The notes beneath the pieces were generated by a model. It was given only the letters and a program-made list of their open reading frames with translations. It was not told the DNA's origin and searched no databases. A DNA stretch of 39,829 nt from a bacterium. GTDB taxonomy: Bacteria > Patescibacteriota > Minisyncoccia > Phycocordibacterales > UBA10002. The stretch lies in assembly GCA_030649775.1 (NCBI GenBank), contig JAUSFR010000010.1, positions 1-39,829 of the forward strand. The letters are read 5' to 3'. Within the stretch, counting starts at the first letter, position 1, and every line of letters begins with the position of its first letter. The translations under genes were made by a program, and so were the position numbers. Below are positions 6,961 through 17,876 of this stretch, piece by piece.

Positions 6961-7012
6961 ACCCCAGTAGTAGAACCTCAAAGATTCGGTTCACTACGGG
7001 GTGACGATTTTC
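6961..7012 (+). promoter_or_regulatory. structured leader motif copy L (rpsL leader): ACCCC-hairpin-GGGGTGACGATTTTC
   Basis: CCCC(6962-65)/GGGG(6998-7001) and GTAG/CTAC close a hairpin with inner stem GAACC/GGTTC. The 3' tail is TGACGATTTT. GATTTT (7006-11) is complementary to AAAATC (7088-93), which lies just upstream of the GTG start. Confidence 0.55.
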
Positions 7013-7097
7013 TACCTCGCTTCGCACCACAAGGGTACTTCCAATTTCTAGTTCACTTTGTTCATAAGAAATTGAGTCGCTCATAACAAAATCAATC

Positions 7098-7511
7098 GTG
7101 TCTACCATCAATCAACTCGTAAAACGAAAGCGCCGTAGCGCTCCGTACAAATCCAAGACTCCCGCGCTCGCGAGAGGTTTTAACGTGATTAAAAACCGCC
7201 CGGTCTATTACCCCGCGCCGTTTAAGCGAGGTGTCTGCACGAAGGTCACCACCAAGACCCCCCGTAAACCAAACTCGGCTATCCGCAAGATTGCCCGTGT
7301 TCGCCTCACGAACGGTATGGAAGTTACCGCCTACATTCCCGGAATGGGACACAACCTTCAGGAACACGCGGTCGTGCTTTTGCGCGGTGGTCGTGTGAAG
7401 GACGTCAACCTTCGTTACCAGATTGTCCGTGGCGTGCTTGATGCCGGTGGCGTTGAGAAGCGTATGAAGGGACGAAGCTCGTACGGAGCGAAGAAGCCCA
7501 AGAAGGCATAA
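7098..7511 (+). CDS. rpsL: 30S ribosomal protein S12
   Basis: GTG start. The sequence reads [48 protein letters not shown]. Confidence 0.95.
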
Positions 7512-7631
7512 GCTCTAAGAAAGAAAAGCTAGAAGCTCGAAGAATTATTACTTTGAATTTCTTAGGACTTCGAACTTAGTGCTTCGAGCTTGAATATCCC
7601 AATTAACTCACTTAGATAATAATAAAAAATT
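7512..7631 (+). repeat. family B spacer hairpin (rpsL-rpsG)
   Basis: AGCTCTAAGAAAGAAAAGCTAGAAGCTCGAAGAA .. TTCTTAGGACTTCGAACTTAGTGCTTCGAGCTT. AAGCTCGAAG/CTTCGAGCTT are exact complements. An A/T-rich tail runs to the ATG. Confidence 0.85.
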
Positions 7632-8102
7632 ATGCGTCGTAAGGTCAAAAACCGAAAAGAGCTCCAGCCTGATGCGATTTACAACTCGCAGAAGGTGACG
7701 AAGCTCATCAACTACTGTATGGAGGACGGTAAGAAAGAGGCCGCGCGCAAAATCGTGTTCGGAGCCTTTTTGATTATCAAAGAAAAGCTGAAGACGGAAA
7801 ATCCGCTAGAAGTGTTTGATACCGCTCTCAAAAATATCACCCCGCTGATGGAAGTCCGTTCCCGCCGTGTCGGTGGCGCGAACTACCAAGTGCCGGTTGA
7901 AGTTCGTCAGGAACGTCGTCTCGCACTTGCGTACCGCTGGCTCATTGGAGCTGCTCGCGGTAAAAAGGGAAAGCCTATGCGCGAAAAACTCGCCGAAGAG
8001 CTTATTCTCGCCTCAAAGAACGAAGGTGAAGCTGTGAAGAAGCGCGAGAACGTCCACAAGATGGCCGAGGCTAATAAGGCCTTTGCTCACTTCGCGTGGT
8101 AA
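7632..8102 (+). CDS. rpsG: 30S ribosomal protein S7
   Basis: EVRSRRVGGANYQVPVEVRQERR.ALA.RW and a C-terminal KAFAHFAW; position follows rpsL as expected. Confidence 0.95.
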   Translation: MRRKVKNRKELQPDAIYNSQKVTKLINYCMEDGKKEAARKIVFGAFLIIKEKLKTENPLEVFDTALKNITPLMEVRSRRVGGANYQVPVEVRQERRLALAYRWLIGAARGKKGKPMREKLAEELILASKNEGEAVKKRENVHKMAEANKAFAHFAW

Positions 8103-8155
8103 TTTGAGAAAGCTTATAGCTTCTAGCTGATAGCTTTTAGGGAAGACGAAGAAGA

Positions 8156-8175
8156 AGCGGGGTAACCCGTTTTTT
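8156..8175 (+). terminator. weak intrinsic terminator after rpsG
   Basis: (AG)CGGG-GTAA-CCCG followed by TTTTTT. Confidence 0.45.
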
Positions 8176-8208
8176 CGTGCTTTATCCAACCCGTTTCTTT
8201 GCGGAATA

Positions 8209-8217
8209 TGCTAAAAT
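8209..8217 (+). promoter_or_regulatory. candidate extended -10 (TGcTAAAAT) for the inserted cassette; would give a near-leaderless mRNA
   Basis: TG at 8209-10 and TAAAAT at 8212-17. The ATG at 8224 is 7 nt downstream of the -10. Confidence 0.35.
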
Positions 8218-8223
8218 ACCAAT

Positions 8224-8430
8224 ATGGCAAAAGCTATTGATTGGACCAACATTTGCAAAAAATATAAAGGGCTTTGGGTAGCGCTTTTGGATGACGAGCA
8301 GACTGTAGTTGGAAGCGGTAAAACCTTAAAAGGAGCAATCGAGAAAGCCCAGAAAAGCGGGTATCCAGACCCGATTATGATGCGCGTCCCCGCGAGGATA
8401 CTTCCGTATATCGGGGGATTTCGTGTATGA
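8224..8430 (+). CDS. small DUF5678-like protein (YKGLWVAL...V..G..L..A..KA)
   Basis: 68-aa ORF. KYKGLWVALLDDEQTVVGSGKTLKGAIEKAQKSGYPDPIMMRVP matches, from memory, the small DUF5678-type fold. It overlaps the next ORF by 4 nt (ATGA). Confidence 0.55.
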   Translation: MAKAIDWTNICKKYKGLWVALLDDEQTVVGSGKTLKGAIEKAQKSGYPDPIMMRVPARILPYIGGFRV

Positions 8431-8804
8431 AGTTCAAGTATCTCAAATTTGCTCTACCGGAACCTTCTCCCATTTTCGGTCCCACGCTTCCCAAACCCAT
8501 TATCCCGATTGAACTGACGTTTGGGGACAAGCGAGTCCGATACGGAGCGCTGGTAGACTCCGGAGCTGATTTTTGTATGGTGGACGGAGCCATCGGAGAA
8601 TTTTTAGGTATAGATGTTCAGGCAGGCGTACATGAAGTGTTTGGTGGTGTTGAGGAAAGTAAAGGACTGGAGGTGTTCTTTCACACGCTTACTCTGGGTG
8701 TTGGAGGTCTTGAATACGAAACCGCTGTCGGTTTTTCTACGATATCGCAAACCATGGCTTCTGTGTCTTGGGGCAGTATGGGTTCTTTGACCGATTTATC
8801 GTGA
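8427..8804 (+). CDS. retropepsin-like aspartic protease, frame-disrupted (conserved C-terminus continues in the -1 frame to 8851)
   Basis: ALVDSGADFCMVD, with the catalytic DSGA motif (D at 8556-8558). Frame 0 ends in non-homologous residues (..SQTMASVSWGSMGSLTDLS*). The -1 frame, open from 8714, reads ..FFYDIANHGFCVLGQYGFFDRFIVKFDLVKGEIELKQRK*, which is the canonical ..LG..gFf..F.v.fD.. end of this fold. That frame stops at 8849-8851. Confidence 0.7.
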   Translation: MKFKYLKFALPEPSPIFGPTLPKPIIPIELTFGDKRVRYGALVDSGADFCMVDGAIGEFLGIDVQAGVHEVFGGVEESKGLEVFFHTLTLGVGGLEYETAVGFSTISQTMASVSWGSMGSLTDLS

Positions 8805-8850
8805 AGTTCGATTTAGTAAAAGGGGAAATTGAACTTAAGCAAAGGAAGTA

Positions 8851-16759: not shown

Positions 16760-16788
16760 ATCCTAGGCGATAACCATGACGGCGTCAA
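16760..16788 (-). promoter_or_regulatory. candidate promoter of the small antisense membrane gene
   Basis: On the minus strand: TTGACG-17-TAGGAT, ~23 nt upstream of the ATG at 16737. Confidence 0.5.
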
Positions 16789-16795
16789 CACGCGA

Positions 16796-16825
16796 TTGAC
16801 TTTTTACCCTTATTCCTGTTAGTAT
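16796..16825 (+). promoter_or_regulatory. candidate promoter of rpsS and downstream genes
   Basis: TTGACT-18-TAGTAT (TGT upstream of the -10). It is back-to-back with the minus promoter, with the two -35 boxes 7 nt apart. Confidence 0.5.
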
Positions 16826-16862
16826 GCGGGGACGCCAATCGGCGGTTTTTTACTGAAAACGC

Positions 16863-16978
16863 AAGGAGCGAAGCGACTATGCTTTTCGTAACCCCGTGGA
16901 ATATTCCTGCTTTGCAGGAATCCCGCCAAGGGCGGGATATTCCACAGGGTGGCGATTTCTATAGTCGCTCCGCTCCTT
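16863..16978 (+). promoter_or_regulatory. structured leader motif copy S (rpsS leader), enclosed by a 17/18-bp outer stem
   Basis: Outer stem: AAGGAGCGAAGCGACTAT (16863-80) / ATAGTCGCTCCGCTCCTT (16961-78). Inside: ACCCC-GTGGAATAT (16891-904) / ATATTCCAC-A-GGG (16937-49). Two inner hairpins follow, TTCCTGC-TTT-GCAGGAA and CCCGCC-AAG-GGCGGG. The tail is TGGCGATTT. GTGGC-GATTT pairs with AAATC(A)GCCAC (16981-91), which abuts the ATG. Confidence 0.6.
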
Positions 16979-16991
16979 ACAAATCAGCCAC

Positions 16992-17336
16992 ATGACCCGA
17001 TCACTCAAGAAAGGACCCTATATAGACCCGCGCGTGCTGAAGAAGCTCGTCGGGAAGCGACCGGAATCGGCCGCTCCTATTAAGACCTGGTCGCGCGCCT
17101 GCGTGATTACGCCGGAAATGCTCGGCTTCAAGTTTTTGGTACACAACGGCAAGGACTTTCCCGAAGTGCTTGTGAACGAAGATATGGTGGGCCATCGCTT
17201 GGGTGAATTCTCGCTGACCCGCAAGTTCGTGAAGCACGGAGGTAAGATGCAGAAAGAGCTTGAAATGAAGAAGAAAGAGGCCGAAATCGCCGCGACAGCA
17301 ACTGCCAAAACGGCAGCGACGGAAGCAAAGAAATAA
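16992..17336 (+). CDS. rpsS: 30S ribosomal protein S19 with Lys/Ala-rich C-terminal tail
   Basis: [53 protein letters not shown]. Confidence 0.95.
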
Positions 17337-17345
17337 TGGCTCGGC

Positions 17346-17387
17346 CCGCAGTTTCAGCATTCAGGCTTCTGAATACTGAAACTGCGG
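17346..17387 (+). other. 12-bp-stem hairpin immediately after rpsS
   Basis: CCGCAGTTTCAG..(ATTCAG-GCTT-CTGAAT)..CTGAAACTGCGG. No U-run follows. Confidence 0.6.
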
Positions 17388-17399
17388 TTGCCGAACATT

Positions 17400-17470
17400 A
17401 CCCCGTGCAGTAAAAACCTTTCAGGTTTTATTTCGCTAAAGCGAAATACTGCACAGGGTGATGATTTTCA
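17400..17470 (+). promoter_or_regulatory. structured leader motif copy V (rplV leader)
   Basis: ACCCC-GTGCAGTA (17400-12) / TACTGCAC-A-GGG (17448-58). Inner hairpins are AAAACCT-TTC-AGGTTTT and ATTTCGC-TAAA-GCGAAAT. The tail is TGATGATTTTC. TGATTTTC pairs with GAAAATCA (17491-98), and GAT pairs with ATC, next to the ATG at 17502. Confidence 0.6.
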
Positions 17471-17501
17471 AAAACTCGCAGACTCGTTAAGAAAATCAAT
17501 C

Positions 17502-17876
17502 ATGAAAGCCATTCTCAACAATTACCGCCAGTCACCTCGCAAGATGCGTCTTGTCGTTGACGCCGTGCGAGGAAAGACCGTCGCAGAGGCGCAGGCAATG
17601 CTCGCACTGATGCCGAAGGTTGCCACCATTCCGCTCCGCAAACTGCTTTCAAGTGCCATTTCAAATGCTAAGGAAAACGCGAAGGTAACCGACACCGGAG
17701 CGCTCATCATCAAGGATTTTCGGGTAGACCCGGGAGTGGTGCTGAAGCGTTCAATGCCACGTGCTCACGGCTCCGCGTACCAAATACTTAAGCGCACGAG
17801 TAAAGTAACCCTTCTTCTTGCAGAGAAGGAAACACCAAACACCAAACACCAAACACCAACGAAGAAAGCAAAATAG
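17502..17876 (+). CDS. rplV: 50S ribosomal protein L22
   Basis: The track start at 17388 runs through the structured leader. The conserved start is ATG 17502: MKAILNNYRQSPRKMRLVVDAVRGKTVAEA. The tail TPNTKHQTPT is encoded by (ACACCAA)x4. Confidence 0.93.
   Translation: MKAILNNYRQSPRKMRLVVDAVRGKTVAEAQAMLALMPKVATIPLRKLLSSAISNAKENAKVTDTGALIIKDFRVDPGVVLKRSMPRAHGSAYQILKRTSKVTLLLAEKETPNTKHQTPTKKAK

Follow-up and report, generated by a model that had tools for sequence, protein, structure and literature searches.

Hairpins that sequester a translation start, as in the coupling of the coat and replicase genes of phage MS2 or within Escherichia coli ribosomal-protein operons, place a helix over the bases before a start codon or over the codon itself. 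The ribosomal-protein leaders collected in Rfam (S10/L4, spc/S8, str/S7, L10 and L20) are structured RNAs 5' of ribosomal-protein genes. Here we describe an element that recalls both, found in a stretch of 39,829 nucleotides (contig JAUSFR010000010.1 of assembly GCA_030649775.1; hereafter the window) that holds a str/S10/spc ribosomal-protein cluster. Like the hairpins of coupled genes, it stands between cistrons of ribosomal operons with a helix over the bases before the start codon, and it could tie downstream initiation to upstream translation; like the Rfam leaders, it lies 5' of ribosomal-protein genes. The initial annotation of this DNA had described a motif of ribosomal-protein leaders, present upstream of rpsL, rpsS and rplV. 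We find that the element is larger and far more general: it is a cassette of three hairpins, H1, H2 and H3, which abuts the start codons of many different genes. In contrast to the Rfam leaders it is not tied to one operon or protein, it precedes many non-ribosomal genes, and it has no match in Rfam. The element is apparently undescribed; Rfam 15 gave no gathering-score match in the window or in six canonical loci, a permissive Rfam scan (E up to 10) of positions 16780-17520 returned only chance matches to miRNAs and snoRNAs, and no paper describing it was found in the literature. We also know of no match to the conserved cores of the hammerhead, twister, pistol, hatchet and HDV ribozymes.

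Further copies in relatives, which the initial annotation had named as a check of its motif, are numerous: a metagenome scan with the pattern GGGTRNNGATTTNNNNARTCGYTYCRCTC returned at least 120 stretches, which give at least 117 unique copies, and the counts below refer to the copies listed from it. Comparison of these with the loci of relatives yields the order H1, linker, H2, H3, AUG. H1 is an A/U-rich stem of 6-8 bp with a loop of 16-18 nt, loop A, of consensus AAYGAGCGAAGCGAVUAU, and a linker of 4-6 nt leads from it to H2. The latter has an ACCC...GGGU stem with a near-invariant base (base stems of 12-19 bp), and it is capped by a hairpin, by a perfect three-way junction or by a longer insert whose usual length is about 100 nt. 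H3 adjoins H2 without a linker and consists of a variable triplet (N3), GAUUUUUAU, the 16-nt loop A' (AGUCGCUUCGCUCC), UAAAAAUC, a bulged A and the complement of N3, so arranged that its 3' strand is formed by the 11-12 nt directly 5' of the AUG. In the following, the 5' strand of H3 is called the tail (T) and its 3' strand the pre-start strand (T').

Several variants of this arrangement exist. The rplV copy and about 10 listed metagenome copies, which we call class II, have a long hairpin followed by ...AACAUU in place of H1, and some relatives (L052, L057) have H1 and H2 without H3. Short H2 domains form a perfect three-way junction in 19 of 26 cases, and their hypervariable tips stay hairpins. 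The H2 lengths of the metagenome copies (e.g. L100, L101, L118, L119, L130 and L086) are bimodal: one group spans 41-70 nt, and the other is tightly clustered around about 96-107 nt and has an A/U-rich interior of about 70 nt on a stem of 12-17 bp; that this length is kept across stem subfamilies hints at an extra domain. The H3 covariance model matches the family in only some Paceibacteria loci, and it also finds versions of divergent sequence, such as that of a Moraniibacteriota locus (L073), which keep H2 and H3. In the divergent relatives the helix covers the AUG itself, with CAU opposite AUG in L055 and GCUCAUUUGU opposite ACAAAUGAGC in L073.

The window contains three copies, named L, S and V after rpsL, rpsS and rplV. 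The sequence GGGTGNNGATTT occurs exactly three times (6999, 16947 and 17456, all on the + strand) where 0.08 occurrences are expected, and the pattern ACCCC-N{30,55}-GGGTGNNGATTT has three matches in the window compared with 0.00 in 100 shuffles, which confirms that the flanks seen at the three leaders are truly recurrent. Predicted folds agree with the earlier view of copy L as a single hairpin (6955-7015, -25.7 kcal/mol, z -4.7) and of copies S and V as three-way junctions (16885-16965, -42.5 kcal/mol, z -6.5; 17395-17475, -34.4 kcal/mol, z -8.3). The H2 domains of S and V are both exactly 60 nt long, have no unpaired bases at the junction and are entirely different in helix sequence; all the helix pairs that had been quoted for them are present and do pair. 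In each of the three copies the tail can pair with the bases directly 5' of the start codon, as had been proposed, and in each the helix holds a bulged A: GGCGATTT (16951-58) pairs with AAATC-A-GCC (16981-89) in copy S, GATGATTTTC (17460-69) with GAAAATC-A-ATC (17491-17501) in copy V, and GACGATTTT (7003-11) with AAAATC-A-ATC (7088-97) in copy L, there with one C.A mismatch. The sequence AAAATCAATC directly precedes both rpsL (GTG at 7098) and rplV, as had been recognised; the rplV ATG is at 17502, not 17503.

Copy S extends 5' of the limits first given to the motif, to 16855, by the additional hairpin H1, whose reverse complement scores 37.7 bits against the H3 covariance model. H3 of copy S scores 67 bits (E 4e-14) with covariance model R1 and is followed by AC and the rpsS ATG (16992). 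The whole copy sits within an inverted repeat with 52-nt arms, and its minimum-free-energy structure is the corresponding hairpin, at -72.8 kcal/mol. A 38-codon upstream open reading frame (ORF; 16879-16995) has its first codon in the loop A of copy S, crosses both H2 and H3, and overlaps the rpsS start as ATGA; as other copies do not conserve it, it is probably a chance feature. The 5' hairpin of copy V (17346-17387) differs from H1 of copy S and begins 10 nt after the rpsS stop. H3 of copy V scores 37.6 bits (E 4e-07) with R1 and is 94% identical to L002 9170-9220. In copy L, a loop of 76 nt separates the tail from its target; a comparable insertion is found at L047 12588.

The helix between the tail and the pre-start strand is the best-supported feature of the cassette. 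Although the pattern used to gather the H3 homologues left out the pre-start strand, H3 is 95.9% paired in 100 distinct listed homologues as against 85.6% in shuffles, its observed score is reached by none of 500 shuffles, and sliding the partner strand lowers the pairing to at most 64.5%. The positions of N3 swap between GC and AU (44/42) and between UA and CG (44/39), and three further H3 positions covary, so that the covariation of tail and target first noticed in the window holds across these homologues. For the three hairpins together, 95.8% of positions are paired in the 43 listed copies that bear H1, 17 of the 28 pairs are changed on both sides, and again none of 500 shuffles attains the observed score. 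The H1 stem covaries in alignment A2, and in H2 the distal pairs do so above the near-invariant ACCC/GGGU base. Unguided RNAalifold predicts the same three hairpins and adds to each loop a mini-stem of 2 bp with a triloop, GC(GNA)GC in A and GC(UYC)GC in A', with CG/UA swaps. H1 has an A-rich and H3 a U-rich 5' strand, so that A-rich strands lie outside and U-rich strands flank H2; H1 is thus not simply an inverted H3, and simple inversion does not explain the complementarity of the loops. With H1 present, the region from -12 to -1 is predicted to be 72% unpaired, compared with 49% without it. A long outer stem made of loops A and A' was considered as a further conserved structure and rejected: it is favoured thermodynamically in copy S, but it shows no covariation and is not chosen by RNAalifold.

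The placement of the cassette is strict. All copies point in the direction of the gene that follows, about 112 of the 117 listed copies are co-oriented with a start codon and abut it, and in the alignment of copies with a called start the ATG follows T' directly in 90 of 100 distinct cases and after a 2-nt spacer in 9. At the other end, 33 of 42 H1-bearing copies have the stop codon of an upstream ORF between -14 and +11 nt from the core of loop A, and with the AUG after H3 the cassette thus spans from stop to start; other copies, like copy S, lie behind a promoter. The proteins encoded downstream of the listed copies belong to at least 98 Pfam families, which is wider than the view of a ribosomal-protein leader motif allowed. 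They include L16 (seven copies), L20 (six), L31, L11, NusA and EF-P (four each), GroEL, PilB/T-type ATPases (T2SSE), S19 and S4 (three each), as well as EF-G, NusB, NusG, SecE, ComM-type Mg-chelatase-like proteins (ChlI) and methyltransferases; rpoB/C, murG, ftsA, fpg and folD were recognised by N-terminal sequence only. The initiation regions do lack a Shine-Dalgarno (SD) sequence, as had been stated: enrichment is seen neither in the window (2 of 41 genes vs 6 of 41 controls) nor in the element-bearing loci (26 of 293 vs 42 of 293). An AAGGAG in loop A was tried as a distant SD sequence and rejected, as no more than 9 of 43 copies have the G at that position and SD sequences are not enriched in the lineage.

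The turnover of cassettes by gain, loss and exchange among leaders is fast, and any single copy is therefore dispensable. None of the three closest genomes (L001-L003) has copy S before its orthologous rpsS, and where L002 and L003 have a leader of 9 nt, the window has positions 16848-16991; no target-site duplication was seen at this single filled/empty site. The genomes that differ by these gains and losses share about 80% identity in their coding DNA. The 5' module of copy V is homologous to L002 9067-9138, which lies upstream of rplF there, and the hairpin of copy L is 92% identical to sequences in the rplC leader of L001 (650-687) and L002 (1306-1342). In these rplC leaders the hairpin stands alone, without the GGGTG..GATTT tail and downstream of a conserved promoter TTGACTTTTTT...TAATCT; the rplC leader of the window (13560-13666) does not have this hairpin, which is found at window positions 6963-7000. 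A small hairpin TAAGCC-NNNN-GGCTTA 5' of rplC is kept in the window, L001 and L002.

Nearly all other spacers of the ribosomal-protein cluster are hairpins of 80-120 nt that reach from stop codon to start codon (-36 to -48 kcal/mol, z -4 to -7). Their arms are low-complexity, lineage-specific repeats, (GGCRCTAGG)n in the 5' arm and (CCTAGRGCC)n in the 3' arm, and a second family of spacers is built from AAGCTCGAAG and CTTCGAGCTT. In the spacer at 28255-28341 the UAG stop is paired beside the AUG. None of the 200 fetched loci contains the repeat CCTAGRGCCTAG, yet the spacers of relatives are likewise stop-to-start hairpins (z -4 to -7), equally structured though different in sequence. Two stretches of 125 nt (20139-20263 and 20554-20678) are 98% identical; in each, the end of one gene is followed by a hairpin spacer of 115 nt (z about -9) and by the annotated start of the next gene, rplX or rplE. 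The TTG starts listed for these two genes probably lie inside the repeat, and translation likely begins at ATGs located at about 20257 and 20672 instead. Spending about 100-200 nt per gene on such spacers in tiny genomes suggests a function worth the cost.

We tentatively read the three loci of the window as copies of a cassette spread through the Paceibacteria/Patescibacteria that gates or couples SD-independent initiation, and we regard this as possible rather than probable. The cassette would act in the transcript, where H3 would hold the SD-less initiation region in a modest helix (predicted at about -6 to -8 kcal/mol for H3 alone) and initiation would depend on its opening. This could be brought about by a ribosome that arrives from, or terminates on, the upstream cistron, or by a competing pairing of loop A of H1 with loop A' of H3, and the translation of housekeeping genes would thereby be gated or coupled. 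While structure, covariation, placement and gene range can be read from the alignments directly, we infer the formation of the cassette in RNA, its effect on initiation and the route of its opening. We favour this reading because of the placement and orientation of the cassette, the strand asymmetry of its stems, the H2 domains that vary and yet stay paired, and the variants in which the helix covers the AUG. As expected of a structure that sequesters a start site, the 11-bp helix ends at position -1 in about 90% of the listed copies and covaries.

Several observations weigh against such gating or coupling. The helices do not have more G.U pairs than A.C mismatches (12 vs 15, 8 vs 5 and 9 vs 9), so that they carry no RNA-specific signature; both this and the near-perfect Watson-Crick pairing of the stems fit young DNA palindromes as well as RNA. 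Co-evolution of loops A and A' was not found (76.7% paired vs 77.0% in shuffles), and the energy of their potential duplex of 16-18 bp is practically the same in cis (-14.5 kcal/mol) and in trans (-14.7 kcal/mol; -6.3 kcal/mol for shuffled loops); the two loops are complementary as family consensuses only. The absence of copy S in the closest genomes means that a given gene can do without the element, and the near-identical H2 domains among copies of one contig (L118, L086) reflect concerted evolution or recent copying. A partner strand within reach of a ribosome terminating upstream is found in the simple neighbouring spacers but not in H3, where it is H1 that lies at the stop codon; as the 5' strand of H3 is far from the upstream stop, a terminating ribosome cannot unwind H3 directly. 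Finally, one would hardly expect the most highly expressed genes to carry a hairpin that occludes their start.

Some of these points are equally what would be expected of selfish or neutral palindromic repeat DNA of the REP/BIME/REPIN, Correia or MITE-like kind, proliferating or copied between intergenic regions, with the hairpins serving as single-stranded DNA or cruciforms in mobilisation and the copies persisting in leaders as almost the sole non-coding space of small genomes. Besides the near-perfect stems, the within-contig likeness of H2 and the loop cores that are reverse complements without co-evolving, as inverted copies of one DNA site would be, this origin would account for the rapid gain and loss, for the same modules before different genes in relatives (those of copy V at rplF and of copy L at rplC) and for fully paired three-way junctions, which resemble nested palindromes. 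The core of loop A, GCGNAGC, equals the d(GCGAAGC) mini-hairpin, which is exceptionally stable in DNA. Such an origin leaves unexplained, however, the strict orientation and nucleotide-exact abutment to the start codon before at least 98 gene families, and the recurrence of the same housekeeping genes among them, with L16 and L20 in the lead. The outer flanks are not inverted repeats, the stems of H1 and H3 are not interconvertible by reverse complement, the hypervariable H2 hairpins keep pairing over many subfamilies, the one filled/empty site pair lacks a duplication, and a scan of viral contigs gave 0 matches. We consider such a DNA repeat unlikely on balance, but a serious rival. Ends of the IS200/IS605 type were rejected as well, because the two hairpins are unlike on one strand and the start-codon adjacency would be unexplained. 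We hold it to be doubtful that stop-to-start RNA cassettes, as a family, take the place of the SD mechanism in Paceibacteria, with initiation by hand-over, shunt or processing instead of rRNA-mRNA pairing. Each cistron of a housekeeping operon would then be preceded by either a simple repeat hairpin or an H1-H2-H3 cassette with its conserved GC(GNA)GC and GC(UYC)GC apical loops; such a module would place the upstream stop close to the next AUG, and the ribosome or a dedicated factor would recognise it.

An RNA-processing or stability signal would offer RNase III, or some other endonuclease, a cleavage site in either the long H2 stem or the A:A' duplex. Cutting there would part the cistrons; the downstream mRNA would receive a 5' end that is short, A-rich and unstructured or near-leaderless, and the upstream one a protective hairpin. 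The span from exactly stop to start agrees with this, as does the fact that all spacers of the cluster are long hairpins; the H2 stems and the potential A:A' duplex provide the about two turns of double-stranded RNA of an RNase III site, not to mention the 52-nt arms of copy S, and cleavage within A:A' would part T from T', which leaves the start region free, while nucleotide-exact placement relative to the AUG is expected of structure-measured cleavage. However, class II copies have no loop A, L052 and L057 lack H3, RNase III does not need strong conservation of loop sequence, and the AUG inside the H3 helix of divergent relatives fits occlusion better than cleavage at a helix end. We think this reading unlikely, but it too is a serious rival. 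An operator for a trans-acting protein of translation or transcription, be it ribosomal-protein feedback or a NusB-S10 complex on a boxA-like stretch at the A'/T' junction, appears improbable to us. It would account for the high conservation of both loops with their covarying mini-stems and triloops, for the conservation of loop A' even in copies without loop A, and for a gene set rich in Nus factors, ribosomal proteins and elongation factors. The junction reads GCTC[C53/A29/T12/G6]TTAAAAA and agrees with the gamma-proteobacterial boxA consensus GYTCTTTAANA (PMC5725501) at all positions except the fifth, which is T in 12%, C in 53%, A in 29% and G in 6% of the listed copies. An exact match is thus found in only about 12%, half of the stretch is paired in H3, and a better boxA-like sequence, GTTCTTTGAAAA, occurs elsewhere, downstream of promoters, in L023; the boxA-like stretch is only a lead. 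The genes also extend beyond any single regulon (T2SSE, methyltransferases and ChlI by Pfam; fpg, folD and murG by N-terminal sequence), and there are no Rfam matches to ribosomal-protein leaders. Feedback by one ribosomal protein does not fit this gene range and the missing copy at the orthologous rpsS site, and the copies are not restricted to the operon of a binding protein, as autoregulation would have it. A riboswitch was rejected, the downstream genes being heterogeneous, the H2 junction having no unpaired bases and its tips being hypervariable. Mobile promoter families are known in other bacteria, and TATAGT or TATAAT is frequent at columns 22-27 of alignment A1, with TATAAT at the 3' edge of loop A, but that such hexamers in H1 and H3 serve as the -10 boxes of a portable promoter, which would give each gene its own transcription start, is hardly credible: we reject it because those columns covary as base pairs (column 22 with column 41, UA 72 and AU 15). 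Moreover, no -35 box is conserved, a conserved promoter already lies upstream of copy S, the hexamer is missing from copy V, and the covariation of T and T' would remain without a cause.

Coordinates of the cassette copies and of the features around them in the window.
Feature	Position	Strand	Basis or remark
Copy L H2, single hairpin ACCCCAGTAGTAGAACC...GGTTCACTACGGGGT	6961..7002	+	fold, pattern match
Copy L tail T (GAC GATTTT), 5' strand of H3	7003..7011	+	read from sequence
Copy L enlarged H3 loop with inserted hairpin	7012..7087	+	sequence; partial nhmmer match 6999-7027
Copy L remnants of loop A', TCGCTTCGC and AGTCGCTCAT	7016-7024 and 7074-7083		
Copy L pre-start strand T' (AAAATC-A-ATC), then rpsL GTG start	7088..7100	+	sequence
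Bidirectional terminator after rplB	16476-16506		promoter/terminator scan
Sigma-70-like promoter TTGACT-18-TAGTAT of the rpsS transcription unit, upstream of copy S	16796..16825	+	promoter scan
Copy S H1: GAAAACGCA / loop A AGGAGCGAAGCGACTA / TGCTTTTC	16855..16887	+	H3-model score, covariation
Copy S H2, perfect three-way junction, 60 nt	16891..16950	+	fold; base near-invariant, distal pairs covary
Copy S H3: T GGCGATTTCTA / loop A' TAGTCGCTCCGCTCCT / T' TACAAATC-A-GCC	16951..16989	+	covariance model, covariation
Copy V class II 5' module: 19-bp hairpin and linker TTGCCGAACATT	17346..17399	+	inverted repeat
Copy V H2, perfect three-way junction, 60 nt	17400..17459	+	fold
Copy V H3: GATGATTTTC / 21-nt non-canonical loop / GAAAATC-A-ATC, then rplV ATG	17460..17504	+	covariance model
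Stop-to-start hairpin spacers	15045-15143, 15528-15612, 18591-18693, 19687-19769, 22530-22637, 23025-23123, 24098-24182, 26810-26891, 28258-28338		
Further stop-to-start hairpin spacers	7512-7631, 14282-14384, 23658-23749, 27483-27576		
Gene order: rpsL, rpsG, three small inserted ORFs, fusA, tuf, rpsJ, rplC, rplD, rplW, rplB, rpsS, rplV, rpsC onward	rpsL 7098, rpsS 16992, rplV 17502		

Regarding the surroundings, rpsL was identified by its Pfam S12 match, the S19 protein of the window is 97% identical to that of a 'Candidatus Taylorbacteria' metagenome-assembled genome (MAG), and the best relatives all belong to the Paceibacteria/Patescibacteria. The promoter before rpsS is kept in L001, L002 and L003, and it follows the terminator after rplB. 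Between the two lie about 300 nt of non-ribosomal-protein DNA (16471-16795) with reverse-strand ORFs (e.g. 16516-16791, 91 aa) and a reverse-strand promoter-like site, from which it appears that the S10 operon is split at this point in this lineage. The str operon contains three small ORFs inserted between rpsG and fusA (8224-9318), the first of which (8224-8430) encodes a DUF5678 protein and overlaps the next by 4 nt, and the other two have no Pfam match. Upstream of the rpsL leader lies a tandem repeat of about three 33-nt copies (6763-6861, 97% identical), each with two small GC-rich hairpins, and before that a large surface-protein gene (3508-6699) with PKD, TIG and peptidoglycan-binding domains. 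Reverse-strand ORFs at the spc/alpha cluster (21365-22120, 251 aa; 29258-30880, 540 aa) have no Pfam match, nor do two further + strand ORFs within 31098-34973. Farther downstream are a nucleoside diphosphate kinase and a VirD4/TraG-like type IV coupling protein (35345-38122). No tRNA or tmRNA gene was found in the window, and no 16S rRNA in any fetched locus, where a single 23S rRNA came from a distant relative. In the ribosomal-protein cluster of a Paceibacterota MAG (L023), two near-identical promoter-like segments (..GCTATACTATAAG..; 13714 and 14493) are each followed by GTTCTTTGAAAA, which we take to resemble a Bacillus-type boxA.

How a start codon is chosen without SD pairing is an open question, and it is entirely unexplored in the uncultured candidate phyla radiation. 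A covarying cassette at the starts of about 100 housekeeping gene families, together with its stop-to-start hairpin neighbours, offers a testable handle on start selection. It can also mark true start codons, serve annotation as a covariance model, and act as a lineage marker for Paceibacteria contigs.

Among repeated elements, the REP/BIME/REPIN, Correia (CREE), ERIC and RUP families are likewise multi-copy, hairpin-forming and about 100-200 nt long, with subfamilies, fast turnover and inverted modules around a variable centre, and Correia elements in transcripts are substrates of RNase III. Whereas REP and REPIN elements have no fixed relation to start codons and lie in either orientation, the cassette has a fixed orientation and abuts the start codon to the nucleotide; its termini are not inverted repeats, no target duplication was seen, and no link to a transposase is known. 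Compared with the terminal inverted repeats of MITEs, the cores of A and A' (16-18 nt) are inverted but subterminal, and the outer flanks, both A-rich, are not inverted repeats. Repeated structured signals exactly between cistrons are also known from the intercistronic RNase III sites of phage T7 and from mitochondrial tRNA punctuation, where processing can leave short or absent leaders; the cassette, by contrast, is cellular and genome-wide and is found in 5' untranslated regions behind promoters as well. TAACTGA direct repeats lie just 5' of start codons in Beggiatoaceae, Cyanobacteria and Bacteroidetes, and a post-transcriptional role has been proposed for them (PMC4679880). They are unstructured heptamer arrays, whereas the element described here is a folded three-hairpin cassette; the (GGCRCTAGG)n/(CCTAGRGCC)n spacers of the window are nearer to such arrays but form hairpins. 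The boxA element, which can repress translation if close to a start codon (PMC5725501), is likewise a short U/A-rich element near the starts of translation and transcription genes, and S10 is part of the BoxA-binding complex; most cassette copies differ from it at position 5, the stretch is partly paired, and the range of genes is much wider. With respect to the start-sequestering hairpins of MS2 and E. coli, finally, the cassette differs in that one and the same conserved sequence stands before about 100 unrelated genes with no SD sequence to hide, and in that the partner strand of H3 is local, away from the upstream stop, and is accompanied by two additional conserved hairpins, H1 and H2.

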